A stretch of DNA of 64,000 bases, from positions 160,001 through 224,000 of IMG/VR virus record IMGVR_UViG_3300023213_000432; one strand, given 5' to 3'. Shown in pieces: positions 2,302 to 42,549 of the stretch; position 1 is the stretch's first letter, and each line of letters opens with the position of its first letter. Source of the DNA: a virus (taxonomy: Duplodnaviria > Caudoviricetes). The notes beneath the pieces are model-generated. The model was given only the letters and a program-made list of their open reading frames with translations. It did not search any database and was not told where the DNA came from. The position numbers were made by a program, and so were the translations under genes.

Positions 2302-3024
2302 TTACCTTCGATACCACTCGCTTTTGACTTCTGCTTTTTTCTCTGGGCTAACTTTCCATCCAAATATTTGCTGAATATTACCTGATTGACGAACAATCAT
2401 GTATCCGCCCGGTGTCATACTGAATGGAACACTTAGCAATTGCAAGTAATCAAACGGAGCGTCCGTGGCTTGGGCTTGCGGATTAAACCATGTTGGCAAA
2501 ACGAAGTTAGAAACTAATACCAGAGTGCCGTCACCTAAATCAATAGTATAGGAATTTGCTTCCACTGGATCGCACAATTCCAGCGCGTATTCAGTGTAAG
2601 TTTGCCCATCAGCAGCTACCACTCCTGGCCCGTCTGCCCAAAAGTTAACATAATAATCGCCAACCATTTCGCATATTTCGTGGCTCAATACAGACGAAAC
2701 GCTGATGTTTTGTGGGTTAGTAGAATCATAGAGAACAACTCCTCCATTATCTAAAACTGGTTGAGCAAAAATGAAGCCATCTACCACATCATTATCTTCG
2801 GAATGATATCCTAATGCTCCCGCTTGAGTAGTATTGTCTAAGATGCTAACAATCCATGCGCCCGCTGGAATCAAAGTTTGATCTGCGTAAAATGTAATGG
2901 TGCCAGATTGTTGATTCCACGCCGGAAGCACATGCGAAGTAAGTTGAATTTGCACCGCTTGACACATAGAGTTTGCTTGATCATCGGAAATTAAAGTTGA
3001 TTGGTTGATAACAGCGATAAGCAT
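2302..3024 (-). CDS. putative zinc metallopeptidase-like protein
   Basis: GALGYH and SHEICEM (HExxE) motifs followed by ELCDPVE. Confidence 0.55.
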   Translation of the reverse strand: MLIAVINQSTLISDDQANSMCQAVQIQLTSHVLPAWNQQSGTITFYADQTLIPAGAWIVSILDNTTQAGALGYHSEDNDVVDGFIFAQPVLDNGGVVLYDSTNPQNISVSSVLSHEICEMVGDYYVNFWADGPGVVAADGQTYTEYALELCDPVEANSYTIDLGDGTLVLVSNFVLPTWFNPQAQATDAPFDYLQLLSVPFSMTPGGYMIVRQSGNIQQIFGWKVSPEKKAEVKSEWYRR

Positions 3025-3069
3025 ATTTGTCTCCTATTCTCGTTGAATATAAAAAAATATGCGCAGGCT

Positions 3070-3099
3070 CTTGACAATTTTTATATTGAAGGTTAGTTT
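3070..3099 (+). promoter_or_regulatory. sigma70-like promoter upstream of tsf
   Basis: TTGACA-N17-TAGTTT; boundaries approximate. Confidence 0.5.
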
Positions 3100-3102
3100 G
3101 AA

Positions 3103-3993
3103 GTGAGAAAAATCATGAATAATTCCGATCTGATTAGAAAATTAAGATATTTGACAGCTGCGGGGATGAAGGATTGTGCCGATGCTTTAAAAGAAGCAGA
3201 TGATAATCTTCAAAAAGCCATCGATATTCTCAAAATTAAAGGGAAAAATATCGCCTCTGAACGAGAAGATAAGGCGGCGTCTGAAGGAAAAATTAAAGTT
3301 TTATCAAAAGATGATACTTTAATCGTTATGGTAGAATGCAATTGTCAAACTGATTTCACCGCTCGAAGTCCCGAATTTGATGGTTTTGTTACATATGTTG
3401 CTCGGAAATTATTCGAGAGAATTGAAAAGAATGAAGTTTTTACCGTGGAAGATGTGGAAGAAAGACGACAAGAATTAATAATATCTACCAAAGAAAATAT
3501 TGTGGTGCGTCGGTGGTGGACAGAACAAGCCTTTGCCGATAATGCTGGTGTTTTCCGTTATGTTCATAATAATGGAAAAATTGGCGTTCTTTTAACTTTG
3601 TTAGCTCCTTCGGAAACAGTAGAGAATAGCAAAGAATTTGAGCATCTAGGAGATGATTTGGCCATGCAGATAGCGGGCATGAATCCATTGGTGATTTCTC
3701 GTGACCATTTAGAGCCAGCAACCGTGGAACGACAAAAGGATATTTTTGAAAGCCAACTAATGGAGATGAAAAAGCCGCCAGCTGCTTGGGCTAAGATTAT
3801 TGATGGAAAAATGAATAAATGGTATTCTGAAGTCTGTTTGTTGGATCAAGAAAGCGTTGTGACTTCAAAAACCTCAATTCAACAAGTTATAGATAAAGTA
3901 AATAAAGATATTAAAGTTGTTAATTTCATCCGCGCAGTTGTCGGGGAAGAAATTGATCAAAAAGAAAGCAACTTATCAAACGAAGTTGCTTAA
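3103..3993 (+). CDS. tsf: translation elongation factor Ts
   Basis: LRYLTAAGMKDCADAL...KAIDILKIKG, ECNCQTDFTA, YVHNNGKIGV, LAMQIAGMNP and LLDQESV are all EF-Ts hallmarks. Confidence 0.93.
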   Translation: MRKIMNNSDLIRKLRYLTAAGMKDCADALKEADDNLQKAIDILKIKGKNIASEREDKAASEGKIKVLSKDDTLIVMVECNCQTDFTARSPEFDGFVTYVARKLFERIEKNEVFTVEDVEERRQELIISTKENIVVRRWWTEQAFADNAGVFRYVHNNGKIGVLLTLLAPSETVENSKEFEHLGDDLAMQIAGMNPLVISRDHLEPATVERQKDIFESQLMEMKKPPAAWAKIIDGKMNKWYSEVCLLDQESVVTSKTSIQQVIDKVNKDIKVVNFIRAVVGEEIDQKESNLSNEVA

Positions 3994-3998
3994 ACGTT

Positions 3999-4301
3999 AT
4001 GAAAGGAAAAAATAAAATGAATACTGAACAATTAATTAATAAACTTACCAAAGCTATTTCCTTCCAATTTAAGGAAGATAAAACGGCGCCCGGACTTACC
4101 ATTGCAGCTCTTAAAAAGGGATATTATTGTAGTGTGGTGCGCTATAATGGAGCCTTTGCCAAGGATAAGATTGTCTTTTGCCATGCCAAAGGAAAGACCA
4201 TGGATGAGGCGCTCAAAGTGGTAGCCGCCCAATTTTTGAAATCTTCGGTGAAAAAGAATCCTGTTAAAGAATTAAACGATTTGGTCAAGACATCCAAGTA
4301 A
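3999..4301 (+). CDS. hypothetical protein
   Basis: 100-aa ORF collinear with neighbours. Confidence 0.6.
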   Translation: MKGKNKMNTEQLINKLTKAISFQFKEDKTAPGLTIAALKKGYYCSVVRYNGAFAKDKIVFCHAKGKTMDEALKVVAAQFLKSSVKKNPVKELNDLVKTSK

Positions 4302-4317
4302 TCTTATTTTCATAAAA

Positions 4318-4650
4318 ATGTTTAAATTCTTTGAATGGAAATATCTAGGTTATGATCCAAAAACAGATCAGTATCGATCCGAAATCACTATCGTGGATGA
4401 TGATTTTACCGAAACCCTCGTCGCCGCCTCCCCAATCGGCGGCGAAGCCGTTGTTCCACCCGCCACCACCGCCTTAATCGATATTTATTCTCGAAGAAAT
4501 CTCAATGTGGCTGGTAATCTCGTGTTGTTGATGCAAGATATAGAAAGTAAATGGCTAGACATTAAACTACAAATCGAATATTATCAAAAATATATTCCTG
4601 AATATTCAAAATATCACGATCAAGTAATGGGTTATCTAATATTCACATGA
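4318..4650 (+). CDS. dispersed repeat-family protein, copy 1 (DDDF...RRNLNVAGNL...KYHDQV family)
   Basis: Aligns by eye with seven other ORFs in the window; GC-rich variable core at 4408-4473. Confidence 0.85.
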   Translation: MFKFFEWKYLGYDPKTDQYRSEITIVDDDFTETLVAASPIGGEAVVPPATTALIDIYSRRNLNVAGNLVLLMQDIESKWLDIKLQIEYYQKYIPEYSKYHDQVMGYLIFT

Positions 4651-5162
4651 GTCTGCAAGATAAAAAACGCCTCAAGCGGATTAAAAATGACGTCATTGAG
4701 CGAGATGGAATGATTTGTTGCTACTGCGATACTGTATTGACACTCGAAACATTAACACTTGATCATATCGTTCCTGATAGCAAACGAGGAACTTTCAATT
4801 CCACTAATTTGACAGTTTCTTGTAAAACCTGCAATAATAATCGCGGGAACAAGCCATTCTTTGAATATTGTAAAAAATTCAAATTTTCCGAAGATAAAAT
4901 TAATAAGTATAAGCGACTGTATTTTAATAACCTTAAAATCAAAGTATTGAATATTGCTAAGGAAGAATGTTTAAAGAGTGATTGTGCCATTCCTAAAAAA
5001 TTGATTAATAAAGCTTGCCAGATTTTGAAAATCAAACCTATCTCGTTTGCAAATTATGAGAAGGAATACCCATTGAATATTGATTTTTCCACTTCATGTC
5101 GGAGACGGGAAATTAAATTTTGTTTTGAGCAATTAATAAGGATTATAGAAGTGGATACGTAG
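4647..5162 (+). CDS. HNH endonuclease
   Basis: CCYC...TLDHIVPDSKRG...NLTVSCKTCNNNRG. Confidence 0.9.
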   Translation: MSLQDKKRLKRIKNDVIERDGMICCYCDTVLTLETLTLDHIVPDSKRGTFNSTNLTVSCKTCNNNRGNKPFFEYCKKFKFSEDKINKYKRLYFNNLKIKVLNIAKEECLKSDCAIPKKLINKACQILKIKPISFANYEKEYPLNIDFSTSCRRREIKFCFEQLIRIIEVDT

Positions 5163-5170
5163 GAGAGAAA

Positions 5171-5714
5171 ATGGATATTAAACCTTTAAGAGATCATGTT
5201 GTCGTAGTGAACTACCTTTGCCTAAGGGCAAAAGCTTCGCGTTTCATTGACCTAATACTACTAGCGCCTCACCGCGTTTTTGTTTAATGTCCGACTATAT
5301 TCCGTAACCAGACAGGTTTTCATTACGCTATTATGACTTGGTTTTCGTCAATCTTAGCTTAATGTTATATATCACCATATGCGTACTTTTGTTAAAATAT
5401 TTTTGAGAAAACGCATTCATCTCTCGCCTAAAGGCGAGAGTCTTCTGCTATCAATCATGATAAAAGATGCTGCCCCCGATAAAATAGCGGGAGGATTATT
5501 ATATAAGCCCGATATTGTGGAGGAAGAATTTATTACCGGAACTGTGGTGGCTATTGGTTCTGGTAAAATTGCTGCAGACGGTTCTACCGTTCATTTGGAA
5601 ATATCCATTGGTGACAAGATTGTTTTCAATAGACATGCACCAGTTAAATTGAAAATCAAAGATCAAGACTATTTAGTTCTGCGCGAAGATCAGGTATTGT
5701 GCATTTTGCCATGA
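5171..5714 (+). pseudogene. groES: co-chaperonin GroES split by a 253-bp insertion
   Basis: 5171-5206 encodes MDIKPLRDHVVV and 5460-5714 encodes IKDAAPDKIAGGLLYKPD...GTVVAIGSG...GDKIVF...VLREDQVLCIL; joining them gives a 96-aa GroES with canonical spacing. Confidence 0.88.
5207..5459 (-). mobile_element. non-autonomous IS605/TnpB-derived mini-element (left end, internal fragment, right end with reRNA scaffold)
   Basis: Reverse complement matches the left end (cagaagactctcg...gatgaatgcgttttct), an internal tnpB fragment (ttgacgaaaaccaagtcat) and the right end (cggacattaaacaaaaacgcggtgaggcgc...gaaacgcgaagc...TTCAC) of the elements at 31260 and 40545; preceded by TTTAT on the minus strand. Confidence 0.9.
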
Positions 5715-5726
5715 TATAGTTAAGTA

Positions 5727-6677
5727 ATGGAGTTTAGTATGGATTATACATTAGATGTTGTTAGTTCTCATCCTGAGCATCAGGGTAAGACCTTTCGCAA
5801 ATACATAGTAGAGGGTATTGAAACTGTGGGAGTCGCCTATGATGAAAAATTTGAAATTCGTTTTACCAATCATACTTGGCAAAAAGTGCAAGTTAAGATC
5901 ACTTTGGATGGAATCGATGTTTTAACAGGAGAGTTAGCTACTATTGAGCCTACCAAGGATATGTGGGTGGTGCAACCTTATGGAATTTTATCGATTAAAG
6001 CTTGGCCGGAAACAGATCAAGGCGGGGCAGGTTTTGTTTTTACTCATGCCGGTAATAGTGTCGCCGTTCATACTCAAAGCGATTTGACGCATCGAGGAAT
6101 TATTGCAGCTGCGGTTTATGTAGAAGGACATATGGAACCGTTGAAGTTGAACCCTTGGGTACCCTTGGGTACTTCGCCTTATGTGTTGTATACTGGGAAT
6201 AAAATTACTTGGGTTGTTCCTAACACTTGGGTTGTTCCTAACACTTGGACATATTCTAACACTTCGACGTATCCTAACACTTTTACTATTCAAGCGCAAA
6301 ATGCTGCAAGTCTTGCATTTGGTGGTTATGGTGGTGGGGGCAATTGTTCTGCCTCTTTTTCTTGCACTGCGAATGTTCCCAATCCAACTAGCACGCAGGA
6401 TCAACAAAGCTTACCAGCGGTAGGTGCTGGACAATACACTGCGCAACAAATTACTTATTCTGCTGGATTAGTCAAACCAATGTTTTCTCAGATTATTCGA
6501 GTGAGATACCTTTGGTGGTCAGATTTGGCTAACAAGCTGGTTAATCCAACGGCAACCTCATCGCATCCATCAGGATTTCCTTCGGATACCAACGAACGAA
6601 TTAATCTTGGAGCTACTCCTATAATTGGTGAGTCTGATATGGTTACACTTTATTCTCAACCTTTTACTCGTTTTTGA
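5727..6677 (+). CDS. conserved hypothetical protein
   Basis: 316-aa ORF with ITLDGIDVLTG and GIIAAAVYVE motifs and a low-complexity Thr/Ser/Gly central region. Confidence 0.7.
   Translation: MEFSMDYTLDVVSSHPEHQGKTFRKYIVEGIETVGVAYDEKFEIRFTNHTWQKVQVKITLDGIDVLTGELATIEPTKDMWVVQPYGILSIKAWPETDQGGAGFVFTHAGNSVAVHTQSDLTHRGIIAAAVYVEGHMEPLKLNPWVPLGTSPYVLYTGNKITWVVPNTWVVPNTWTYSNTSTYPNTFTIQAQNAASLAFGGYGGGGNCSASFSCTANVPNPTSTQDQQSLPAVGAGQYTAQQITYSAGLVKPMFSQIIRVRYLWWSDLANKLVNPTATSSHPSGFPSDTNERINLGATPIIGESDMVTLYSQPFTRF
6207..6248 (+). repeat. in-frame 18-bp tandem repeat (2.3 copies)
   Basis: acttgggttgttcctaac x2 plus acttgg; encodes TWVVPN TWVVPN TW. Confidence 0.9.
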
Positions 6678-6705
6678 TTAATTATTTAACAAAGGAATTT
6701 TATTT

Positions 6706-6960
6706 ATGAAAAACTCAGCCACCCAAGCCAAGTTTCCATTCGAAGAAGTAGATCATGTTTTCGGAGCCCTTTTCACCGCATTTCATGTAGAAGAAAGAGA
6801 AGACCCGCACTCCCAGTTTCTGGCGCTTTGGGTGCTTTTCTTGCAATGTGCAGGATGGACAGAAGATGAATATTGGGCAGCGGTAGATGAATTGAACGAC
6901 GAAGAAGCATTAGATGACGAAGAGACATTAGAGACAAACGATAAATCAAAACAGAATTAA
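6706..6960 (+). CDS. hypothetical acidic protein
   Basis: 84-aa ORF after AAGGA SD; D/E-rich C-terminus. Confidence 0.6.
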   Translation: MKNSATQAKFPFEEVDHVFGALFTAFHVEEREDPHSQFLALWVLFLQCAGWTEDEYWAAVDELNDEEALDDEETLETNDKSKQN

Positions 6961-6973
6961 ACACAATAGAACG

Positions 6974-7267
6974 ATGCCAATGATGCCAGAAAAGACTATA
7001 GTTTATCTTGTGATAGAAGAAGATCATGATCATATTGATGGTCATTGCCATCATGAAATTATTGGCGGCTTTTTTACTCAGGAAGAGGCGCTGGCGAAAT
7101 GTGCTGAGATGGAGCAAAAACAAAAAGCACGACATGCTTTGACTAATAAATTAAGGCAAGCTAAGAATAGTTTTGATGAAGAAACGAATCGTTTTTTCCT
7201 GTGCCAACTGAAGAGCGAACAGATTGTTATTTCAATTTTGCCACTCAATCTTGTCAATAACCCATGA
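6974..7267 (+). CDS. hypothetical protein; last codons and stop supplied by the IsrB element end
   Basis: ORF ends ...VNNP* within gtcaataacccatga. Confidence 0.6.
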   Translation: MPMMPEKTIVYLVIEEDHDHIDGHCHHEIIGGFFTQEEALAKCAEMEQKQKARHALTNKLRQAKNSFDEETNRFFLCQLKSEQIVISILPLNLVNNP

Positions 7268-7565
7268 CTAAAGTCATGGGCTTGTGCGAAGGATCCTAGT
7301 CAGATTCTTTTGATCAAGACTAAAATATTGTACTAGACAAAGAGAGAAGAAAGGTTATTTAACCAAACAATATTTCAAATAGGCAAATCAGGATCGTTAT
7401 GACGAGACTGGAAAAGATATGCTACTGGATGTTTCGCTAGTCTGTAGCCGCATTTCCGCAAGGAGATGCCAATACCTTATCGATAATTGTAAGGTATTCG
7501 CTGTGTTTTGCTTATGTCGAAGCGAGTTGAACAAGGCACGTAAGTGCAATTTTTGAGGAAATAAT
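7253..7565 (+). ncRNA. omegaRNA (HEARO-like) of IsrB
   Basis: ~310-nt non-coding, hairpin-rich region starting GTCAATAACCC directly upstream of a PLMP-domain ORF, the typical iscB/isrB layout; 3' boundary approximate. Confidence 0.7.
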
Positions 7566-8600
7566 AGAAATTGGTTCCCGTTATCGATAACCACAAACAA
7601 CCATTAATGCCTTGCTCTGAAAAGAGAGCACGGAGACTTATGGAGAAAGGCAGCGCTATCTCATATTGGCAGAAAGGTATCTTCTGTGTCCGTCTAACCA
7701 GAGAACCTTTTAACCGAAAGACACAACCCATTGCTCTTGGCATTGATCCAGGAAGTAAAAGAGAAGGATATACTATTGCTACTAGAAAGGCAGTAGTTCT
7801 CAATATCACAACTAATACTACAGATTGGGTCAAAGATCATATTGATACTCGAAGACAACTACGAAGAACAAGAAGAACTCGTAAAACCCCCTATCGTTCT
7901 TGTCGAGAAAATAGAGCTACTTTGAGGAAAGATCGAGTTCCTCCTTCCACCAAAGCTAGGTGGAATGCTAAATTGCGAATGGTTAAATTTCTTCTGAAAA
8001 TTATTCCTATTACCATTATCAATGTAGAAGATATTGCCGCTGCCACTAAGAAAGGGCAGGCAAAGTGGAATCTTTCTTTCTCTCCTTTAGAAGTGGGAAA
8101 GGTTTGGTTCTATCAAGAAATAGAAAACCTTGGAGTTCAGCTTCTCAAAACCCAAGGACATCAAACTCAAGAAAAACGAGATCAACGAGGCTTTCAAAAA
8201 TCATATTCCAAGCTTAATTATTCTTGGAATGCTCATAACGTAGATAGCCATGTTCTTGCGGAGATAGCGATGGAAACAGAAATCCTTCCATATTATGGAT
8301 TGTGGAAAGTGGAGTTTTTAGAGTTTCATCGAAGACAACTTCATGTTCAGAATCCAATCAAGAATAATGTTAGAAAACAATATGGCACAACTATTTCTAT
8401 AGGAATGTCAAGAGGATCTGTTGTAAGATATAAAAACAAGTTTTATTATCTTGGTGGAAGTAGCAAAGGTAAAGTTTCAATTCATAGTATTATTACAGGA
8501 AAAAGAGTTAAACAATCCGTCAAAAAGAGAGATATTGACGTCTTATATACACAGAATAGGAGAGTTCAATTCCTCCCACGATTAAAATCGTGGGTCTTCT
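7253..8600 (+). mobile_element. IS200/IS605-superfamily IsrB element without tnpA
   Basis: Matching terminal hairpins cccatgact-aa-agtcatggg (7261-7280) and cccacgatt-aa-aatcgtggg (8575-8594) bracket the omegaRNA region and the RRXRR ORF; boundaries approximate. Confidence 0.8.
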
Positions 8601-8647
8601 TGAACCATTTTCATGATTTGAAAAATAAGGATCATATGTATGTCTAA
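7571..8647 (+). CDS. isrB: IsrB (RRXRR/PLMP, split RuvC, no HNH) RNA-guided nickase
   Basis: QPLMPC, RuvC-I GIDPGSK, Arg-rich bridge helix RRQLRRTRR, RuvC-II VEDIAA, RuvC-III HNVDS; no CxxC/HNH insert between RuvC-II and RuvC-III. Confidence 0.82.
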   Translation: MVPVIDNHKQPLMPCSEKRARRLMEKGSAISYWQKGIFCVRLTREPFNRKTQPIALGIDPGSKREGYTIATRKAVVLNITTNTTDWVKDHIDTRRQLRRTRRTRKTPYRSCRENRATLRKDRVPPSTKARWNAKLRMVKFLLKIIPITIINVEDIAAATKKGQAKWNLSFSPLEVGKVWFYQEIENLGVQLLKTQGHQTQEKRDQRGFQKSYSKLNYSWNAHNVDSHVLAEIAMETEILPYYGLWKVEFLEFHRRQLHVQNPIKNNVRKQYGTTISIGMSRGSVVRYKNKFYYLGGSSKGKVSIHSIITGKRVKQSVKKRDIDVLYTQNRRVQFLPRLKSWVFLNHFHDLKNKDHMYV

Positions 8648-8870
8648 CTGGATTGATAGTATTAAACAAGACGGATCTTTTTGTTCTCTCATCACTTCTA
8701 CTGGTGGGGCTTGCATCTATCGACTCAGCGATCGAAAGTGGAAATGGGAGGCTCGTTCCAATGCTGTTACCTTTGTGGATGACAATAGTGGTTGCGGTGT
8801 TTGTTTGCTTAAAGATGATGCTAAGCAAGAAGCAGAGGAATGGTTGAGAGCGCACGGAGAAACTTTATGA
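8640..8870 (+). CDS. hypothetical protein
   Basis: 76-aa ORF overlapping neighbours in operon fashion. Confidence 0.5.
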   Translation: MSNWIDSIKQDGSFCSLITSTGGACIYRLSDRKWKWEARSNAVTFVDDNSGCGVCLLKDDAKQEAEEWLRAHGETL

Positions 8871-9091
8871 TCAAAAAGACTAAGAAATATATTCTGACTA
8901 TTGAGTTCGATACCAAGAAAGCTTGTGAATATTTTATGGAATACCTATGTGAGGCTGGCGAACAGGATTATTGGAAGAGCATGGAGTATGTCGAAGAAAA
9001 GGATACTAGCGACGGTATCACCGCGATCGATTTTGATTATGACTTTAAGAAGGGCAAGATAAAGACTGTTAGTGGAAGACTAGATAAATGA
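8867..9091 (+). CDS. hypothetical protein
   Basis: ATG at 8867 overlaps the upstream stop; its stop overlaps the helicase start. Confidence 0.55.
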   Translation: MIKKTKKYILTIEFDTKKACEYFMEYLCEAGEQDYWKSMEYVEEKDTSDGITAIDFDYDFKKGKIKTVSGRLDK

Positions 9092-10581
9092 CCTCCAAGT
9101 TTCCTCCCAAGAAACCTGAGCAATATATTTTTAAACCTGCTCCGAAACACGAGTGGAACAAATGGCAGCAAGCCATCTTTAAAAATGTCAGTAGCGGGAC
9201 TGGACATACCATTATTGAAGCTTATGCTGGTTCTGGGAAAACGACGACGATTATTGAAAGTTTTCGATACATCCCTAGAGGCAAAAAGTCTATCGCACTC
9301 GCATTTAATAAAATTATTCAAGAGGAACTTCAAGCTCGCGCTCCCAACTTTATAGAAAAAAGAACATTTCATTCCATCGGGCTTCAATGTTTGAAACAAC
9401 GGTTCGGAAACATAGAGATCGATGATAACAAAGCGTTTAATATTGTCAAATCAATTTTAGATACGAATACTAATAATGATTTAATTGTCAATCTGTGTGA
9501 TGCTATTGCGTTTTGCAAATACGGATTGTTGGATACGCCAAGTCAAATTGATGATTTGATTGATCGGTTTGGAATTGATGTTTGTGATTTGCCGCGCTCA
9601 AGTTTTATCGAATTAGTTATTAAGGCATTGGGGGAGTGCAAAAGACAAACCAATATAGTTGATTTTAATGATATGTGTTATCTTCCATTCGTCCTTAATC
9701 TTCCATTAGGAAGATTTCATTTAGTTTTTATCGATGAATACCAAGATCTTAACAAAAGTCAGCTGATAATGGCAAAAAAAATGTGTGACCCTAATGGTGG
9801 AAGGATTATTGCGACCGGAGATGCAAATCAAGCGCTTTATTCATGGCGACTATCTGACACATCTGTGATGGATGAAATTAGAAAACAACCCACCACCAAG
9901 ATTCTTACACTTCCTGTTTCTTATCGTTGTCCTAAAAAGATAATCGCCTTAGCTCAACATTGGGTGCCAGACATTACTTGTCCCGATACTGCCATTGAGG
10001 GTGAAGTGCATGACATTTCTCTTAATTCTCTCTACGATAAAGCGACGCCCGGTTGTTTTATTTTGAGTCGTACTAATGCTCCTCTGATCAAGATTTGCAT
10101 GAATTTTATCAGGCTTGAAATTAAAGCTAATATTCGTGGAAGGGATGTTGGAAAATCTCTTACCTATCTCATTCGCAAATCTAAAAAAAAGAAGATGGAT
10201 GCTTTTCTTAAATGGTTAGAAGATTGGAAAAATGAGGAAGCTGATAAACTTCAAAAAAAGAATATCAATCCCGAAAATATTCTTGATCGATATGAATGTT
10301 TAGTTAATATTTGTGAAGAATGCAAAACATTGGATGAAGTAGTCAAAAAAGTGGAAGAGTTGTTCAACGATACCGATGAGAAGAATATCGTGATTATGAG
10401 CACAGTGCATAAGGCGAAAGGACTTGAAAGAGATGATGTTTTTGTGCTTCGATGGACTTTTCGGGAATGGTTGGATGAGAGTTTGCAGTTTGTAGAAAAG
10501 CCTAATGAAGAAATTAATATAGCATATGTCGCCGGATCGAGGACGTGCAAAAGGCTTTTTTTAGTCAATAAGTTCATCTAA
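9088..10581 (+). CDS. UvrD/Rep-family superfamily 1 helicase
   Basis: AYAGSGKT Walker A, FIDEYQD, GDANQALYSWR, SYRCP, STVHKAKGLE, YVAGSR. Confidence 0.92.
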   Translation: MTSKFPPKKPEQYIFKPAPKHEWNKWQQAIFKNVSSGTGHTIIEAYAGSGKTTTIIESFRYIPRGKKSIALAFNKIIQEELQARAPNFIEKRTFHSIGLQCLKQRFGNIEIDDNKAFNIVKSILDTNTNNDLIVNLCDAIAFCKYGLLDTPSQIDDLIDRFGIDVCDLPRSSFIELVIKALGECKRQTNIVDFNDMCYLPFVLNLPLGRFHLVFIDEYQDLNKSQLIMAKKMCDPNGGRIIATGDANQALYSWRLSDTSVMDEIRKQPTTKILTLPVSYRCPKKIIALAQHWVPDITCPDTAIEGEVHDISLNSLYDKATPGCFILSRTNAPLIKICMNFIRLEIKANIRGRDVGKSLTYLIRKSKKKKMDAFLKWLEDWKNEEADKLQKKNINPENILDRYECLVNICEECKTLDEVVKKVEELFNDTDEKNIVIMSTVHKAKGLERDDVFVLRWTFREWLDESLQFVEKPNEEINIAYVAGSRTCKRLFLVNKFI

Positions 10582-10624
10582 TTAGTCGCCCAATAAAATC
10601 GCATCTTGACGATAAGAACCAAGC

Positions 10625-11920
10625 ATGCTATTACTTCTGCTTTTCAATCCATCGGCTACTGTTTTCAATCCTATTTCACCTCTGCCGGGGCCGGAACCGC
10701 TTCCTCCTAGCGGACCTCGGTTTAGAATGGTGGGACGAGACGAAAACTCTAGTCCCACTCACTTTCGAAGCTGGGTAGTTAATGGTCAGCCCGATTTCCC
10801 CGCCGCTCTTTACGGTGGATTGAAATCCGGCATCAATCCTTTACTAGATGTCAAAGCTTATGAAATTTTCGATCCTACTAGTCCATTTGATTTTAGCCTG
10901 CCAGATGTTCTAAATTGGAACACGACCAAACGGGTGCTTCCTGCTGTTATTTCCAATTCTCAACTTGCCATTATGGATGGTTATGTTTGGTTATTCGGTT
11001 CTCAAAACTCTGCCAAGATTTGGCGAGCCCCTCTTAATAATCCCGCGGATTGGACGGATACTGGGGCTACTTTACCTAAAAACATTTCCGATAGTCAGCT
11101 AGCCGTAATCGATGGCTATGTTTGGCTATTTGGAGGTTTAACGGATGGATACACTGGGAGCGAAACTGATGAAATATTTTCTGCGCCCATTTCCAATCCA
11201 TTATCTTGGACTAATCGAGGTCATGCTCTACCCAAACCACTGTCCGCTTCTCAATTGGTGATCGTGGATGGTTACATGTATATGTTGGGCGGAAGATTGA
11301 ATTCAGGCCCCTATGATGGAATTTGGCAAGCCCCGATTACTAATCCACTAATTTGGACGGATACCGGAAAAAAACTTCCCAACAAGGTGTTCAATTCTCA
11401 AGTATGCATCACTCGTTCTGATGGATATGTTGAACTTCTGGGCGGACAACTTGATGGATATCACTTCACTGATCTTATTTATTATGCTTCCGTTTTCAAT
11501 CCAACTTCTTGGGCTGTTGCTGGAAGATTACCAGCTCAATGTGCGGGCGGACAATTTGCCCAAATAGCCGGTAAGGGATATCTCTTCACGCCTGCCAATA
11601 TTGGCGCTTCTAACACTCGTATTTTTCGGTGTGATTTCGGAACTAATCCTTTTGCTTGGGTGGATGTAGTTAATACTATTCCGGGTGAAATTTCTCAATC
11701 CCAAATAGCGATAATCGATGATAGATTATTTTTATTTGGAGGTTCGGGCAGTAGTGTGATTTTTGCTAGTGACCAAATCATCAAATATCAATTTGCCTCA
11801 CCAGCCGCTTTACAGTATGGATTTATTACTCGCACTCAAGTTTTGGGTATTGGTAATGCTAACAATTTGTTCAAAGTGCTAAGCATGCAACCTTGGAAAA
11901 CCGGATATTTAGATTTTTGA
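10625..11920 (+). CDS. Kelch/galactose-oxidase-like beta-propeller protein
   Basis: Repeated SQL.IIDGYVWLFGG...APxxNPxxW motifs. Confidence 0.75.
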   Translation: MLLLLLFNPSATVFNPISPLPGPEPLPPSGPRFRMVGRDENSSPTHFRSWVVNGQPDFPAALYGGLKSGINPLLDVKAYEIFDPTSPFDFSLPDVLNWNTTKRVLPAVISNSQLAIMDGYVWLFGSQNSAKIWRAPLNNPADWTDTGATLPKNISDSQLAVIDGYVWLFGGLTDGYTGSETDEIFSAPISNPLSWTNRGHALPKPLSASQLVIVDGYMYMLGGRLNSGPYDGIWQAPITNPLIWTDTGKKLPNKVFNSQVCITRSDGYVELLGGQLDGYHFTDLIYYASVFNPTSWAVAGRLPAQCAGGQFAQIAGKGYLFTPANIGASNTRIFRCDFGTNPFAWVDVVNTIPGEISQSQIAIIDDRLFLFGGSGSSVIFASDQIIKYQFASPAALQYGFITRTQVLGIGNANNLFKVLSMQPWKTGYLDF

Positions 11921-11963
11921 TTTGAACTTGACAATTGTATTTTAATAATTAGGATTAGTAGAG

Positions 11964-13085
11964 TCAATCACCACCAACACAAGGTTGATGGCTTGCCGCT
12001 AACATTACTGTTGCGGCATATGGCTCATTGACCAGAGCCTGCTCCTTGTCTATCAAGGAGAGAAGTTCGCAAGCATTTTGCTTGCTCTGCTTTTCAAGCA
12101 GATAATTGTTTCGGATGTTGATAGCAGCGTTGAGATCTGCATTACTTTTAAATCCACACTTACCACAATTAAACAGAGATCTGTCCCGATTAACTTTCTC
12201 GGTATGTCCACAGTTAGAACATTTTTGGGAAGTATAGCGAGCATCTACTTTAACTATTTGCTTCCCAAGCTCTTCTGCTTTATATACCAAAAATTGTTCT
12301 AATTGGTAGAACGTCCAATTAGCAAGCCAACCGTTTAATACTTTTCCTTTCCTATGTTTTCTGATCCCTGTTAAATCTTCCAAAACGAACACATCATATG
12401 GCAAACTAACTAACCATTTGCTGATGATATGATTAATATTACGGCTGAACCGCATTTCTCGTCCGGAACGCTTTTTGAGAAGCCGTTTCGCAGAGCGAGT
12501 GCCTTTTGCCATAAGTTGTCTTTTCACAAAAAGAAACTTGCGTTTCTGCTTTCTGATCTCCCATGCATTATATTGTTGTCCGTCCGACAACGAGACGACA
12601 TTATATAATCCACGATCCACTCCAATAACTTTGTCTGATTGTTTAGTTGTCGGAGTAGAAGAGGTAAAAGTTAGGTTAGCCTTGAAGCAATTCTGTTGCT
12701 TGTTGAAGCCAATAGTAGCGGACTGAAACTTCCAACCACTGTATTTCTTAAAATAAGAAGGAATGCTAATAAGTTGGCGGATTCGTTTTCCGCTCCAAGA
12801 GAAGGAAAGAAGATTGCCCCGAAGAGAAACGGTATTCTTATTGTAGCGAATAGCGGAGTAGGGTTTTTTGATAGGCTTGAATTTAAACTTAACAGCTTTA
12901 ACCGCTTCCAAAGCCTGATCTCGAACGCTTTGAATAACACAGGATGGAATGTTAGGGAACTCTTGGCGGAGTTAACGAGTTTGGAAAGCCCATTCTACGT
13001 GTCGATTGAAGATATCGGAGCAAGTTTTTAGGTAATCGAGGAAGCCGGCGGGAACTTCAATTTTGATGGGCAGAGTTCGTTGCAT
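11964..13085 (-). pseudogene. tnpB: TnpB (IS605 OrfB) with an in-frame stop near the N-terminus
   Basis: ATG at 13085 reads MQRTLPIKIEVP...WAFQTR, then TAA at 12974-12972, then LRQEFPNIPS... in frame with ORF 11964..12911 carrying GVDRG, LEDL, YTSQKC, CxxC and NADLNAAINI; right end TTGAC at about 11963. Confidence 0.85.
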
Positions 13086-13183
13086 TCAAAACATATATGT
13101 CATTATTGATAGATGTTGAAAGAAAAAGAAAGGGGCAGCTATTCTCATAGCACAGGACTATGGATTTCGTTGCCTAAGAGATC

Positions 13184-13564
13184 ATGAAAGACCAAAAACA
13201 AGACCCAATAGTTTGTTATCTTGTAGTTAGAGAAAGTTTAGGAATGACTATGGGAAAAATGGCGGTTCAATGCTGCCATGGCATTCAATATGTATTGGAA
13301 GGATATTATGGTTGGAAATATACTGGACTTGGAACTAAAAGCGTCGAATTGGTGGATGACTGGATAAAGAGCGGACACCGTAAAGTAGTTCTTAAAGCTG
13401 ATGAAAAAGAATGGAAGCAATTAGAAGAATTGTCAGAAGATCATAAAGTGGTAATAGATGCTGGCCTTACTCAACTGGAACCCGGAACATCAACGGTGAT
13501 CGCATTTTTTCCGATGCGAAAGAGTCAATGTCCTAAAATTATCAAAAGATTGCAAGTATTATGA
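13184..13564 (+). CDS. pth2: peptidyl-tRNA hydrolase, Pth2 (archaeal/eukaryotic type)
   Basis: LVVRESLGMTMGKMAVQCCHG, KVVLK, VIDAGLTQLEPGTSTV. Confidence 0.88.
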   Translation: MKDQKQDPIVCYLVVRESLGMTMGKMAVQCCHGIQYVLEGYYGWKYTGLGTKSVELVDDWIKSGHRKVVLKADEKEWKQLEELSEDHKVVIDAGLTQLEPGTSTVIAFFPMRKSQCPKIIKRLQVL

Positions 13565-14316
13565 ATAATGATAGTTTGGGCGACCGTATGAAGTGTTTTG
13601 AGGATGCTTACAGAATTAAATTACCTATTCGTATGCCTGTAATATTGAGAGTCGATGGTTGTCATTTTCACTCTTACACTAAAGGATGTCAGCGCCCATT
13701 CGATGAGAAACTCATTGACTGCATGAATGATACCGCTATCTATTTGTGTAAAAACATCCAGGGGGCGCAACTTGCATATGTTCAATCCGATGAAATTTCT
13801 ATCTTATTGAACAACTACAAAACATTAGAAACACAATCTTGGTTTGAAAATAATCTTCAAAAAATGGCCAGCGTTTCTGCTTCAATGGCTGGAGCGATTT
13901 TTACAGCTAATTCTACTAAGATTTTTGGAGAAATCAGAATGGCAACGTTTGATGCTCGTGTTTTTGTTTTGCCCAAAGAAGAAGTCTGTAATTATCTACT
14001 TTGGCGGCAATTAGATAGTTCCCGCAACTCTGTTCAAATGGTAGCCCGCTCTCATTTTTCTCATAAACAATGTGAAAACAAAAACTGTTCTCAACTTCAA
14101 GAGAAACTTTTTCAAGAGAAAGGTATTAATTGGAATGATCTTCCTACGTGGCAGAAACGAGGACGGTGTGTTGTTAAGAAAAACAAAATGAAAGAAAGTG
14201 TTAATACCCAAACAGGAGAAAAAATAATTGCAGAACGTTCCGAATGGGTTATTGATAATAATATTCCGCTCTTTAATCAATCCCGTGAGTATGTGGAAAA
14301 ATATGTCTGTTTTTGA
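13561..14316 (+). CDS. thg1: tRNA(His) guanylyltransferase / Thg1-like 3'-5' polymerase
   Basis: LRVDGCHFH, YVQSDEIS, FDAR, YLLWRQLD..RNS, KGINWNDLP..KRG. Confidence 0.92.
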   Translation: MNNDSLGDRMKCFEDAYRIKLPIRMPVILRVDGCHFHSYTKGCQRPFDEKLIDCMNDTAIYLCKNIQGAQLAYVQSDEISILLNNYKTLETQSWFENNLQKMASVSASMAGAIFTANSTKIFGEIRMATFDARVFVLPKEEVCNYLLWRQLDSSRNSVQMVARSHFSHKQCENKNCSQLQEKLFQEKGINWNDLPTWQKRGRCVVKKNKMKESVNTQTGEKIIAERSEWVIDNNIPLFNQSREYVEKYVCF

Positions 14317-14392
14317 GAAATCTGTCAAAGATCTGGGATATAGGGACAAGTAAAAGAAAAAATGAACTCTAACCCTCTAACCAAAGGAACTC

Positions 14393-14875
14393 ATGATATT
14401 ATCAAAACTTACTGCTTGGGTATTAGCTGCAGCATTGGTGGCGTCAGGAAATACCACTCCAATGCCTCCCAAATTAGCCCACGGTATCAGCACGATGAGC
14501 TTATCGTTCCCAATTTTCGGTGGGACTGATGGAGCGCAACAAACCGCTGCATTATTGGTGATTTTTGCATGGGGCGAAAGCGGTTATCAAAATCATTTAG
14601 TAGCGGATGATACTTATGGCAAGAAATCGTATGGCGCTTTTATGATCCAAGATTGTGGGCCATATTCTTGTCTGGAGATCATTTCTGATACACAGAAGAG
14701 TTCTTATATGAGCATCGTTTGGCTCGCTAGATCCATGAAATATTGTCCCGAATATCCATTCTGGTTCAGTATATATGCTAGTGGCGGATGTAATAATAGT
14801 GCTGGTAGATTTATCTCCAAAGATCGTTTGCAAAAAGCAAATAATCTAATCAAGATAGTAAAAATAGAAGACTAA
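14393..14875 (+). CDS. secreted lysozyme/transglycosylase-like protein
   Basis: Signal peptide followed by WGESGY and GAFMIQ, resembling an SLT-type catalytic Glu motif. Confidence 0.45.
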   Translation: MILSKLTAWVLAAALVASGNTTPMPPKLAHGISTMSLSFPIFGGTDGAQQTAALLVIFAWGESGYQNHLVADDTYGKKSYGAFMIQDCGPYSCLEIISDTQKSSYMSIVWLARSMKYCPEYPFWFSIYASGGCNNSAGRFISKDRLQKANNLIKIVKIED

Positions 14876-14920
14876 AATAGTCAATATTGCTCAGTGCGCT
14901 GAGACGAAATAAGAGATTTA

Positions 14921-15538
14921 ATGCAAGTTATTATTAATGGAATTCAGTCCGATACTGGTCAATCTATTACCGAAGAAACTTTTAATCGTTGCAATACTTT
15001 TGCGGAAGAATCTGTTGATAGTAATGCGGATCGATATGCGCGGCGCAATCAGTTTAATATTGAAAAAATAAAACTCGATATTCGAACCGGCAAGTTGGGA
15101 GAAGAATTAGTTTATAATATATTAGTCAAACAATTCCCCAATTTAACCAAACCAGATCATACAATTTACTCCAAAAAAGACAAGTCGTGGGCGCCTGATT
15201 TAAGCGATCCTGGTAGCGGAATTGTTATTGGAGTCAAGAGTCAAGAGATCAAATCGGAATTAGCTTATGGAAGATCTTGGGTCTTCCAATATCGAGCCGG
15301 CAAAAATTATGATAGCGACAAGGGTATCTTCGGAGAAAAAGATGACAAACATTATGTGGCGTTTGTTTCTATTAATTCTACCAAAAGAATCGGCGAACTG
15401 CGTGGTGTGGTGAAAGTAAATTGGTTGCATGAAAATAAGTTGTTTAAACCAATGAAGTTGCAACATTTGCAGAATAACAAAATGGCTGTTTATTATGAAG
15501 ATTTGGCTAAGTATGGAAAAGCTTTGTTTCAGCTATGA
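14921..15538 (+). CDS. putative PD-(D/E)XK nuclease
   Basis: GKLGEELV...PDL...IGVKSQ; stop overlaps the methylase start. Confidence 0.45.
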   Translation: MQVIINGIQSDTGQSITEETFNRCNTFAEESVDSNADRYARRNQFNIEKIKLDIRTGKLGEELVYNILVKQFPNLTKPDHTIYSKKDKSWAPDLSDPGSGIVIGVKSQEIKSELAYGRSWVFQYRAGKNYDSDKGIFGEKDDKHYVAFVSINSTKRIGELRGVVKVNWLHENKLFKPMKLQHLQNNKMAVYYEDLAKYGKALFQL

Positions 15539-16365
15539 TCAAAAGCCCCTTTCGATATCCCGGTTCTAAAAATAAAATGATTGTCCCAATAATGGAACAT
15601 CTAATTCCATTAATAGAAAAATATAAAGTATATTGCGAGCCGTTTATTGGAGGGGGCTCTATTTTGTTAGAGATCGCAGAAAAATATCCCAAATTAGAAC
15701 TTTTTGCCAATGATCGCGACGATTGGTGTTCAAGTTTTTGGCAAGTAATGTCTGATCCTGATACCACCAATCTAAATAGATTGCTCCAACTATTGGATAC
15801 TCAACCTACCATCGAACATTTCTATCAACTTCGCGAAACTCCATCAAATGATGTAATGGATTGTGCTTACCGTGCACTGTATTATAACCGCTGTTGTTTT
15901 AGTGGGATTGTGATGAAGGATGATAAAGGGATGGTCAAATCCAATCCCATTGGGGGCAAAAATCAAAAATCCAAATGGAAAGTTGACTGTCGCTATAATG
16001 CCAAAAAGTTAAAGGAAAAAGTCATCAAATGTCATCAATTATTAGCTGGAAGAACAACAGTGGAATGCAAGGACTTTTCGGAATATGATATGTTAATCAA
16101 ATCAGATTATCCTGCCTATTGCGATCCTCCATATGTGATTAAAGGCGGAATGCTTTATTCTGAAAATATGTCACTGATAGAACATAAGCAGTTAGCTAAT
16201 GTTCTGAACAAACGAAATAATTGGATTTTGTCATATGATGATTGCGATGAAGTTAGAGAAATGTATAAAAATAATCAGATAACTACTATTAGGGCCGCAT
16301 ATACAATAAATGGCAAGAAAGAAATGTGGAAAAATAATAACGAATTGATTATTGAACCGATATGA
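15535..16365 (+). CDS. DNA adenine methyltransferase (Dam/D12 class)
   Basis: FRYPGSK, EPFIGGGS, YCDPPY, LSYDD. Confidence 0.9.
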   Translation: MIKSPFRYPGSKNKMIVPIMEHLIPLIEKYKVYCEPFIGGGSILLEIAEKYPKLELFANDRDDWCSSFWQVMSDPDTTNLNRLLQLLDTQPTIEHFYQLRETPSNDVMDCAYRALYYNRCCFSGIVMKDDKGMVKSNPIGGKNQKSKWKVDCRYNAKKLKEKVIKCHQLLAGRTTVECKDFSEYDMLIKSDYPAYCDPPYVIKGGMLYSENMSLIEHKQLANVLNKRNNWILSYDDCDEVREMYKNNQITTIRAAYTINGKKEMWKNNNELIIEPI

Positions 16366-18772: not shown

Positions 18773-19105
18773 ATGTTTCGATCCTTTGACTGGAAATATC
18801 TGGATTATGATCCAACAACAAATCAATCTCGATACGAAATTATTTTTGTAGATGATGATTTTATCGAGACCACAATCGCTGCCTCCATTGCAGACTATGT
18901 CGTTGTCACCGTTTCCATCGCCCTAATCGATATTTACTCTCGAAGAAATCTCAATGTAGCTGGTAATCTAGTTTTGCTGATGCAATATATAGAAAATAAA
19001 CGGTCATGGGCAGATATTAAATGGCAAATCGAGGAATACCAAAAATGCATTCCAGAATATCAAAAATACCATGATCAAGTAATGGACTATCTAGTATTCA
19101 TGTGA
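18773..19105 (+). CDS. dispersed repeat-family protein, copy 2
   Basis: Conserved family motifs; variable core at 18863-18922. Confidence 0.85.
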   Translation: MFRSFDWKYLDYDPTTNQSRYEIIFVDDDFIETTIAASIADYVVVTVSIALIDIYSRRNLNVAGNLVLLMQYIENKRSWADIKWQIEEYQKCIPEYQKYHDQVMDYLVFM

Positions 19106-19117
19106 GAAAGAAGTAAA

Positions 19118-19453
19118 ATGTTTCAATCTTTTGATTGGAGATATCTGGGTTATAATCTAAAAACAAATCAATCTCAATACGAAACTACTTTCGTAGATGA
19201 TGATTTTATCGAAACAGTCGTCGTTTCCTTCATCAGCACCATCAATGACGGATCTTCCCTCGCCGCTGTTCTGATTGATATTTACTCTCAAAGAAATCTC
19301 AATGTAGCGGGCAATCTTGTGTTGTTAATGCAATATATAGAAAATAAATGGCCATGGATAGATATTAAGTGGCAAATCGAGCGTTATCAAAAAGAAGTTC
19401 CTGAATACCAGAAATACCACGATCAAGTAATGGATTATCTAATATTCATGTAG
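19118..19453 (+). CDS. dispersed repeat-family protein, copy 3 (tandem with copy 2)
   Basis: Conserved family motifs; variable core at 19208-19270. Confidence 0.85.
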   Translation: MFQSFDWRYLGYNLKTNQSQYETTFVDDDFIETVVVSFISTINDGSSLAAVLIDIYSQRNLNVAGNLVLLMQYIENKWPWIDIKWQIERYQKEVPEYQKYHDQVMDYLIFM

Positions 19454-27401: not shown

Positions 27402-27692
27402 ATGTTTCGATCTTATAGTTTGAAACCTCTAGATTACGGATACGAAATCACCATCGTGGATGATGATTTTACTGAATCTGCCTTCGCCATGAACGTGCCC
27501 TCCGTCACTGCCCTGATTAATATTTACTCTCGAAGAAATCTTAATGTGTCTGGCAATTTAGCTTTACTAATACGATATGGAGAATATAAACACTCATGGG
27601 ATATAAAAAGGCAAATTAAATGGTTTCAAGCATATGTTCCTGAATACCAGAAATACCATGATCAAGTAATAGACTATCTAATATTTTTGTGA
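27402..27692 (+). CDS. dispersed repeat-family protein, copy 4 (between MoxR and VWA genes)
   Basis: Conserved family motifs; shorter N-terminus; variable core at 27471-27512. Confidence 0.85.
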   Translation: MFRSYSLKPLDYGYEITIVDDDFTESAFAMNVPSVTALINIYSRRNLNVSGNLALLIRYGEYKHSWDIKRQIKWFQAYVPEYQKYHDQVIDYLIFL

Positions 27693-30583: not shown

Positions 30584-30922
30584 ATGTTTCGATCTTACGA
30601 TTATAAATATCTTGGATTTAACAATAAAACAGATCAATGGCGATATGAAATTACTATCATGGATGACAACTTTACTGAAACTGCTGTTGCCGCCGCCGTC
30701 GCGGACGTTGGCGACAATGACGCTACGCGCATCGCCGCTGTCCTTATCGATATTTATTCTCGAAGAAATCTCAATGTGGCCGGTAATCTAGTTCTGCTGA
30801 TGCAATATATAGAAAATAAATGGTCACGTGATATTAAAAGGCAAATTGAATTGTATCAGGAACATATTATAGAATATCAGAAATATCATGATCAGGTAAT
30901 GGGTTACTTGGTATTTATATGA
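30584..30922 (+). CDS. dispersed repeat-family protein, copy 5
   Basis: Conserved family motifs; variable core at 30674-30742. Confidence 0.85.
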   Translation: MFRSYDYKYLGFNNKTDQWRYEITIMDDNFTETAVAAAVADVGDNDATRIAAVLIDIYSRRNLNVAGNLVLLMQYIENKWSRDIKRQIELYQEHIIEYQKYHDQVMGYLVFI

Positions 30923-36508: not shown

Positions 36509-36826
36509 ATGTTTAAATCTTTTAACTTTAAATATTTAGATCATGATTCAAAGAAAGCTAAGTATCGATACGAAATCATTATTGTGGATGATGATTTTAC
36601 CGAAGTCGCCGACGCGCTCGTTTGTGGTCGTCCCACTGCCGACGCCGCCGCCGCATTAATCACTATTTATTCTCGAAGAAATCTCAACGTAGCTGGTAAT
36701 TTAGCGTTGTTTATGCAATTTACAGAACATGAATGGTCATGGCGAAGTATTGAATGGCATCAAAAAGAAATTCCAGAATACCCAAAATACCACGATCAAG
36801 TAATAGGCTATCTAGCATTTATGTAA
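36509..36826 (+). CDS. dispersed repeat-family protein, copy 6
   Basis: Conserved family motifs; variable core at 36599-36655. Confidence 0.85.
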   Translation: MFKSFNFKYLDHDSKKAKYRYEIIIVDDDFTEVADALVCGRPTADAAAALITIYSRRNLNVAGNLALFMQFTEHEWSWRSIEWHQKEIPEYPKYHDQVIGYLAFM

Positions 36827-41880: not shown

Positions 41881-42213
41881 ATGTTTCGATCCTGCGAATG
41901 GAAATATATAGGGTATGATGACAACGTAAATCTATGACGATACGAAATAATTATCGTGGATGATGATTTTACTGAAACCGCCGTCTCTGACAACGGCGAT
42001 CCTTACTCCATGGTCGGCGCTGCCTCCGCCCTGATCGATATTTACTCTCGAAGAAATCTCAATGTAGCTGGCAATCTAGTGTTGTTGATGCAATATATAG
42101 AAAATAAATGGTCATGGCAAGATATTAAATGTCAAATTAGATGGTATCAGAAATACATTCCTGAATATCAGAAATGCCACGATCAAGTGATGGACTATCT
42201 GGTATTTATGTGA
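41881..42213 (+). pseudogene. dispersed repeat-family copy 7 with premature TGA at codon 19
   Basis: ATG 41881 reads MFRSCEWKYIGYDDNVNL*RYEIIIVDDDF...; TGA at 41935-41937 lies where copy 5 has TGG. Confidence 0.8.
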
Positions 42214-42222
42214 AAAAGTAAA

Positions 42223-42549
42223 ATGTTTCAATCTTGCGCGCTTAAATATTTAAGCTATTCTCCACAAACAAATTGGAAGCGATACACAATTACCATTGTA
42301 GATGATACCTTTACTGAAACCGTTAGTTGTTATGCTGCTGGAGAAGCTTATGCTGTCGTTTCCGTTCTAATTAATATTTATTCTCAAAAAAATCTCAATG
42401 TAGCTAGTAATTTAGCCTTACTAATGCAACATTTGGAGCGTAAATGGGCATCAATTAATATTAAATGGCAAATAGAGTATTATCAAAAATACGTTCCCGG
42501 ATATCAGAAATACCACGATCAAGTAATGGAATATTTAGTATTTTTGTGA
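42223..42549 (+). CDS. dispersed repeat-family protein, copy 8 (tandem with copy 7)
   Basis: Conserved family motifs; variable core at 42313-42366 uses mostly NNT codons. Confidence 0.85.
   Translation: MFQSCALKYLSYSPQTNWKRYTITIVDDTFTETVSCYAAGEAYAVVSVLINIYSQKNLNVASNLALLMQHLERKWASINIKWQIEYYQKYVPGYQKYHDQVMEYLVFL

Follow-up and report, generated by a model that had tools for sequence, protein, structure and literature searches.

The hypervariable, C-rich segment that occupies the same place in each copy of a small jumbo-phage gene, here called the core, is probably a coding simple-sequence repeat, that is, a half-decayed (GCC)n tract set in a tolerant loop that varies across the whole protein family. 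The best-supported account is that the repeat is still active in some phages and roughly half decayed in the genome in which it was noticed, the IMG/VR record G000. Bearing on this reading are a strong and sharply local codon bias, a spectrum of decay that is even across the three codon positions, a correlation between decay and the age of the flanking sequence, the absence of DGR parts from the genomes searched, and the purer repeats that are carried by relatives.

G000 is a jumbo phage of 327,423 bp with 38.5 % GC and a CheckV completeness of 76 %. The window, i.e. the whole 64,000-nt stretch of DNA that was analysed, consists of bases 160001-224000 of that record. It encodes EF-Ts, isocitrate lyase, PNKP and RNA ligase, as well as an abundance of selfish nucleases, including HNH, LAGLIDADG and RRXRR types and six copies of TnpB. 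A profile search of the whole record recovered 16 copies of a gene family encoding proteins of about 110 aa, all of them on the + strand and four as tandem pairs; it is the biggest paralog family of G000. Eight copies are in the window, and their ORFs can be aligned end to end. The core was defined as the stretch that separates the F-x-E of DDDFxE from the L-I-D-I-Y-S block, and so begins 6 nt later than the segments of the initial annotation, the x-Glu codons after DDDF being left out. All eight segments proved to be where that annotation had placed them, and its counts of C-ending codons are matched exactly once the two x-Glu codons are added back, including the 12 T-ending codons among 18 in copy 8. 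Its eight copies are all present, with the correction that copy 7 carries an in-frame TGA.

Copy 1 (4318..4650, 110 aa) has a core of 20 codons at 4414-4473 with a GC content of 0.73 and 15 C-ending codons; an exact look-up of its protein returned no record, and its stop codon overlaps, by ATGA, the start of an HNH endonuclease gene at 4647-5162. Copies 2 and 3 form a tandem pair, with the former (18773..19105, 110 aa) containing an 18-codon core at 18869-18922 (GC 0.54, 11 C-ending) and the latter (19118..19453, 111 aa, with a TAG stop at 19451-19453) a 19-codon core at 19214-19270 (GC 0.53, 12 C-ending). Copy 4 (27402..27692) encodes 96 aa and has a short N-terminus, and its core at 27477-27512 comprises 12 codons (GC 0.64, 8 C-ending). 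Copy 5 (30584..30922, 112 aa; core 30680-30742, 21 codons, GC 0.68, 12 C-ending) is flanked by a LAGLIDADG endonuclease gene and an Fe-S assembly gene and is syntenic with P0021 of the related contig L038, while copy 6 (36509..36826, 105 aa; core 36605-36655, 17 codons, GC 0.75, 10 C-ending) is syntenic with P0020 of L038 and P0025 of L042. In copy 7 (41881..42213; core 41977-42030, 18 codons, GC 0.67, 13 C-ending), the TGA is at 41935-41937, codon 19, and a restart at the GTG at 41956 would yield 85 aa. A TnpB (OrfB_IS605) gene at 40661-41854 lies immediately upstream, across a gap of 26 nt. Despite the TGA, the flanks of copy 7 are near the family consensus and the fraction of its core codons ending in C (C3) is still 0.72; the copy is either a recent pseudogene, a gene restarted at the GTG at 41956 or one that is read through. 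Copy 8 (42223..42549, 108 aa) has a 16-codon core at 42319-42366 (GC 0.46) with only 3 C-ending and 11 T-ending codons. Outside the window, G000 34320-34450 holds a decayed 17th copy, recognizable by MFKSYE... and ...ITITDDDFI with stops between them, which ends exactly where a core would be expected to start. Several family copies begin 0-3 nt behind the stop codon of the preceding gene or share an ATGA overlap with the gene that follows.

The 16 cores of G000 consist of 12-24 whole codons, in frame and free of stops, and have a GC content of 0.44-0.75 between flanks of 0.29-0.33, with sharp boundaries at the core edges. Among their 292 codons, 172 (59 %) end in C, as against 57.3 (20 %) expected from G000 synonymous usage (z=17.1), whereas the flanks of the family are slightly poor in C3 by the same standard (z=-3.2). 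The bias is not an effect of amino-acid content, because 22 control windows of similar A/V/T/S/I/G/D composition in other G000 genes have a mean C3 of 0.21 and a maximum of 0.33; the cores, with a mean of 0.59, clearly exceed them (Mann-Whitney p=8e-7), and 15 of the 16 are above the control maximum. One of the conditions set beforehand as refuting the initial interpretation was that the third positions of the cores would not differ from those of other Ala/Val-rich G000 segments, and they do differ. With G-ending codons depleted (13/292), what is favoured is C rather than GC as such, and this depletion led to the rejection of both GC-biased gene conversion and capture of GC-rich host DNA as its source. 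Within the cores, GCC occurs 57 times in frame and once in each of the other frames. The Pro/Ala-rich stretch at G000 289332-289421, the end of another gene, uses mixed third bases in that gene's frame, and thereby serves as an internal contrast to the codon-homogeneous cores. In low-complexity regions built by slippage, homogeneous codon runs go together with high length variability, while mixed synonymous codons betray selection at the protein level (PMC10124876). The cores bear this accepted mark of slippage, their codon homogeneity exceeding both the synonymous usage of G000 and the matched controls. Beyond composition, the order of codons in one core is unrelated to that in another (best local score 14, P(set max)=0.25), and the residual similarity of the best pair, 17 nt, is not significant after multiple testing; the cores are, as first described, completely different between copies.

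Immediately after the core, about 30 nt (4474-4520 in the window, and the equivalent in all 16 copies) are conserved at synonymous sites; Ser is TCT in all 16 copies, Leu is the rare CTC in 14/16 and CGA AGA occurs in about 85 %, while the other four-fold sites of the gene look saturated. This conservation is specific to the lineage, because two related clades (B and C, below) vary the same codons, and it may reflect either a gene-conversion tract or a constraint at the nucleotide level.

The codon with the smallest distance to all core codons of G000 is GCC. Measured against it, 45, 51 and 41 % of codons depart from G, C and C at the first, second and third positions, respectively, leaving 55, 49 and 59 % unchanged. 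The departures are made up of transitions (25, 29 and 27 % of codons), transversions to A or T (13, 13 and 9 %) and transversions to G or C (7, 9 and 4 %), and the three spectra are indistinguishable (chi-square p=0.10, G000 cores). Decay of a (GCC)n tract under AT-biased, transition-rich mutation would give equal spectra of this kind. The equality points to a decay that is blind to codon position, as neither a process targeted to one codon position nor strong selection on amino acids would yield it. The family copies in G000 are old paralogs, with a flank dS of 0.86 (pS 0.51) and dN/dS of 0.22, alongside a core pN of 0.56 and pS of 0.59. Thus, the amount of change in the cores is close to that at the neutral sites of the same genes, and hypermutation is not needed to explain them. 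The decay model also predicts that C3 should fall as copies age, and this is borne out; core C3 declines with the distance of the flanks from the family consensus (Spearman -0.72, p=0.002; -0.68, p=0.003, when only third positions are used). Copy 8 has both the most diverged flanks and the most decayed core. The initial annotation, which took copy 8 to have been ameliorated, was right, and its remark applies family-wide. Of the three candidate processes that it offered, the one favoured by the equal spectra, the link to flank age and the purer relatives is that of a (GCC)n tract which first expanded and then decayed; its suggestion that an undescribed process repeatedly rewrites the segment finds no support, the departure from GCC being position-blind and scaling with flank age.

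On the favoured reading, an in-frame (GCC)n-type triplet tract would have arisen, presumably by slipped-strand expansion, in the part of a small phage protein gene that encodes strand 3, a loop and helix 1 of the predicted fold. The gene would subsequently have multiplied, reaching at least 16 copies in G000, and the tract of each copy would have decayed independently through point mutation, mostly C-to-T and G-to-A, combined with insertion and deletion of whole codons; the C-ending bias would then be the third base of the repeat unit, not yet erased. A homogeneous ancestor holds no positional information, so that tracts decayed from it would share composition and not order. The composition common to the decayed cores is one in which NNC exceeds NNT and the residues are Ala, Val, Thr, Ser, Ile, Asp and Gly. 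Slippage as the generator of such a tract, like the purity of the ancestral repeat, is a presumption drawn from these patterns. It is not directly visible in G000, where the count of adjacent identical codons (20) is close to that in shuffled cores (19.4), and hence it must be old. The lack of tandem periodicity in G000 is what would be expected of a decayed tract, yet it is not positive evidence for one.

The correlation between C3 and flank age would be equally expected if C3 had been selected and the selection then relaxed in degenerating copies. According to that account, diversifying selection acts on the loop as a determinant of specificity, and some advantage in the nucleotide sequence or its translation maintains the NNC codons. 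We regard this as the most serious competitor, though a rather improbable one. The loop is indeed hypervariable across about 1000 clusters of the family, and the flanks of the copies cluster by genome and seem homogenised while the cores remain distinct, both of which would suit a diversified determinant. However, the G000 spectrum is equal at synonymous and non-synonymous positions, and core pN is close to pS, with no sign of dN exceeding dS. Moreover, there is no known mechanism that would produce a codon-preference island of 50 nt. A signal of RNA structure is absent from the cores, and a conserved hairpin was rejected, as fold energies are the same as those of codon-shuffled cores (mean z +0.28). 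Nor can there be a common C-rich RNA function, because the repeat unit of clade B is G-rich; a role in Rho loading or as an anti-SD sequence was discarded for this reason and because Pro is rare.

The codon repertoire of the cores naturally brings DGRs to mind, and adenine mutagenesis of a DGR-like kind was among the processes initially considered. A DGR requires an RT together with a TR that closely matches the VR and mismatches biased to adenine, and the fold is nearly always that of a C-type lectin (PMC8144416). The PF00078 reverse transcriptase profile, for which positive controls responded, had no match at E<=1 in G000 (327 kb, 76 % complete) or in the phage genomes G001 (118 kb) and G002 (406 kb, 95 % complete), and the Pfam notes on the called genes of five related contigs likewise include no RT. 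The observation that the window has no RT thus extends to the G000 record as sampled and to two further genomes. When profiles of the flanks (the 45 nt that precede and the 66 nt that follow the core) were run with nhmmer, they matched only the 16 copies and the decayed N-terminal fragment at G000 34320-34450, which means that no template repeat is present; the genome search that had been suggested, for an RT and for a template repeat sharing the flanks, therefore yielded neither in G000 at its 76 % completeness. Matches to the cores elsewhere in G000 and G001 are at chance level (longest exact match 14 nt), so that silent donor cassettes can be excluded there, as can guide-like partners.

Unsampled sequence might still encode a DGR, or some other system directed by a template, that rewrites the segment from, e.g., an (AAC)n, (ACC)n or (GTCGAG)n repeat, with one adenine-derived base per unit being variable and slips of register producing the variation in length. 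The NNC/NNY repertoire does resemble DGR variable codons, the G000 record is 76 % complete and in certain relatives the variation falls on a single base of each unit (the first of NCC, the fifth of GTC GNG), but we consider such a system very unlikely. No RT or TR was found in G000 as sampled, there are 16 targets of unequal length and the fold, as modelled, is not a C-type lectin. As a proxy for adenine bias, the G000 spectrum, equal and dominated by transitions at all three positions, does not fit a DGR, whereas the one-base variation of the relatives could. Compared with DGR variable regions of the Bordetella phage BPP-1 Mtd type (PMC8144416), the family is alike in having a short, hypervariable, NNC/NNY-rich segment between conserved flanks in a phage gene. 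It differs in that neither RT nor template repeat was found, in the variable length and 16 targets, in a predicted fold that is neither C-type lectin nor Ig, in the position of the segment away from the C-terminus, and in a spectrum of change that is transition-dominated and equal at the three codon positions. DGR-like adenine mutagenesis is accordingly left without support, given the lack in G000 of an RT, a template repeat and a core donor, the differing lengths, which had already been seen as a poor fit to a DGR and are here counted against one, and the predicted fold. NNC codons alone do not imply a DGR, and a tempting false lead is thereby removed. The comparison also shows, by example, how a decaying triplet repeat can be distinguished from targeted mutagenesis, namely by an equal spectrum at the three positions, decay that goes with flank age, and purer relatives.

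The sharp GC boundaries of the cores raise another alternative, in which foreign or untemplated GC-rich DNA is inserted repeatedly at one site, whether as a mobile GC-rich element or as filler from the repair of an endonuclease cut. Analogues of the former are the GC clusters of yeast mitochondria and the Rickettsia palindromic elements (RPE). Many homing endonuclease and TnpB genes are nearby, some adjoining family copies, and the decayed fragment at G000 34320-34450 stops at the would-be start of a core. Nevertheless, insertion of GC-rich DNA, which was also on the initial list of candidates, ranks as the least likely of the readings weighed here. The cores lack any hairpin or palindrome signal, have no copies elsewhere in G000 or G001 and show no similarity to one another. 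They are built of whole codons, free of stops and have C phased at position 3, and the relatives show a tandem unit structure instead. Palindromic mini-elements like those of yeast mitochondria and Rickettsia were set aside for want of a hairpin signal and of copies elsewhere. Translational bypass, as in the T4 gene 60 gap and the mitochondrial byps, was rejected too, since the 16 cores and those of the relatives are whole-codon, stop-free and codon-phased.

The case for a repeat is carried further by the relatives, whose DNA came from three groups. In clade C (G002 and some genes of L036), the core is of normal composition. In clade A' (L037, L038 and L041), where the GC content of the locus is 0.44-0.45, the cores are near-pure (NCC)n with a GC content of 0.75-0.84, and 33 GCC, 13 ACC and 7 TCC are found among 68 codons. 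In clade B (L036 and L040), they are strict hexamer arrays, (GTC GNG)n, in which NNY and NNR alternate in 95 of 99 instances, as against 52 expected (p<0.0002). The choice of codons again departs from local usage. GCC accounts for 49 % of the relatives' core codons vs 36 % of the Ala codons in the surrounding loci, and GTC for 39 of the 46 Val codons at NNY positions vs 14 % of Val codons in the surrounding loci; GGG makes up 17 % of Gly codons in the clade B genomes, where both GTC and GGG are rare. Adjacent identical codons in clade A' (19 vs 17.5 when shuffled) are not in significant excess. Core length changes in whole units and outpaces the divergence of the flanks. P0021 and P0023, for example, have flanks that are 96-98 % identical and cores that differ by an 18-nt indel plus about 18 % substitutions, and clade B cores range from 11 to 23 codons at a flank identity of 80-95 %. 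Within L036 (ENA ERZ25039507 contig_20094, 205 kb), at least six family genes are crowded into 13 kb at 2900-16000, and the genome combines hexamer-repeat cores with ordinary ones.

The purer tracts vary in a manner of their own. In the units of clade A', the first position is more variable than the third, synonymous one (37 vs 16 %; heterogeneity p=0.004). In 52 % of clade B units, GNG has a middle base other than G; the third base is G in 46 of the 52 even codons, and the remaining six, which end in A, are all GCA, the codon that closes each array. All four nucleotides occur at position 1 of NCC and at position 5 of GTC GNG, with the adjacent synonymous bases fixed. Plain neutral decay fails to predict this one-base variation in clades A' and B, and unit turnover, selection or targeted mutation is needed as well. 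Turnover of units, with a few variant units being amplified and selection acting on an exposed strand face, could give these patterns. The excess of non-synonymous variation at one base per unit in these sister clades is likewise a point for diversifying selection on the loop. It is also conceivable, as a long shot, that the sister-clade tracts are diversified at one fixed base per unit by a targeted mutator working from a simple-repeat template; such a mutator may be a remote or unusual DGR or a system independent of RT, in which case the G000 copies may be its burnt-out products.

Among known systems, codon-homogeneous low-complexity regions and coding tri- and hexanucleotide microsatellites, built by replication slippage (PMC10124876; PMC3523016), are the closest to a decaying triplet repeat. 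As in these, the repeat unit is one or two codons long and keeps to the reading frame, synonymous usage is off the genome norm, length changes by whole units, and the tract is broken up and stabilized by point mutation in a tolerant part of the protein. Unlike the usual microsatellites, however, the tract of this family occupies one fixed loop of a multi-copy phage gene and is met with in three stages, ranging from pure hexamer through near-pure triplet to half-decayed, it forms a GC-rich island in an AT-rich jumbo phage, and it would fall, according to the structural model, in a strand and the start of a helix rather than in a disordered linker. Bacterial contingency loci are phase-variable genes in which simple-sequence repeats change rapidly in length and switch expression on and off. 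They too have simple-sequence tracts within genes, but the family tract alters the peptide and not an on/off state; its units being 3 or 6 nt long, the frame is always kept.

An AlphaFold (AF2) model built from a 44-sequence alignment (pLDDT 92) has strands at residues 2-13, 18-27 and 31-38 and a loop at 39-45, followed by four helices. The core takes in strand 3 and the loop as well as the first turn of helix 1, and this is the least confident block of the model (mean 75). The cores start with strand-prone residues (T/V/I) and end Ala-rich, in keeping with strand 3 and helix 1 of the model, and if the model is right, this match would speak for selection on the loop. Fold searches against PDB, BFVD and AFDB clusters, along with a wide VIA search, gave nothing significant (best Z 5.1). 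No lectin is among the fold matches listed, although absence from that list is not proof. A likeness to the dsRBD amounts to a weak strand-strand-strand-helix match (TM ~0.4) and was not relied on. In 161 parsed family proteins, mostly from the best 150, the distance from DxDFxE to the Y-x-K-R-N-L-N-V helix segment ranges from 3 to 30 residues, and the variable segment is mostly ordinary, non-repetitive sequence, with about one-fifth of cases rich in A/V/G/T/S. From this range it follows that the core site is a generally variable loop on a conserved scaffold. Lying beside the invariant Asp27 and Asn67, the loop probably sets binding specificity.

The protein family itself is more interesting than the mechanism behind the core. 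It is widespread and unnamed, encodes proteins of about 110 aa in up to 16 copies per genome, and is common to otherwise unrelated jumbo phages. A word-indexed search returned 45 related proteins, while an exhaustive profile search returned representatives of 1007 clusters at E<=0.001, a number that falls to 421 at 1e-10, which puts the family at about 1000 clusters at 50 % identity. Family proteins have no match in Pfam or PADLOC and the window copies have none in PHROGs, and a scan of metagenome contigs with the family profile found no relative.

Collinearity with G000 extends to the contigs L037, L038 and L042, in which neighbouring proteins are 55-75 % identical and family copies occupy three shared positions. 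Even so, copy 4 is absent from its syntenic position in L038, and copies 7 and 8 are absent from L042, the loci being otherwise collinear. Syntenic cores are no more alike than random pairs (ranks 2, 8, 11 and 15 of 16), at a divergence too great for the comparison to be informative; S-V-R and Cys-Gly matches picked out by eye between syntenic copies are not significant. In a tree of the flanks alone, copies cluster by genome lineage and not by position, so the flanks either evolve in concert or belong to copies that have been replaced. Concerted evolution by gene conversion is familiar from multigene families in which scaffolds are homogenised and hypervariable regions stay distinct. The present family is alike, in that the flanks of syntenic copies cluster by genome while the cores differ, and gene conversion may be at work in it, to judge from the conflict of tree and synteny. 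Unlike donor-cassette families, it shows no donor cassettes or expression-site logic, and its copies appear to be independent full genes.

Exchange between genomes is suggested by G001 (IMGVR_UViG_3300023212_000464; L043-L048, e.g. 99702-100841), which shares 18 of its 138 ORFs with G000. The shared ORFs are mostly from multi-copy paralog families of G000, and one TnpB has 95.5 % amino-acid identity; mobile genes seem to pass between jumbo phages that are otherwise unrelated. G001 carries two genes of the present family, with about 78 % nucleotide identity and homology that runs from about 5 nt before the ATG to the stop. Homology bounded by the gene in genomes that are otherwise unlike indicates that the family gene behaves as a gene-sized, horizontally exchanged cassette.
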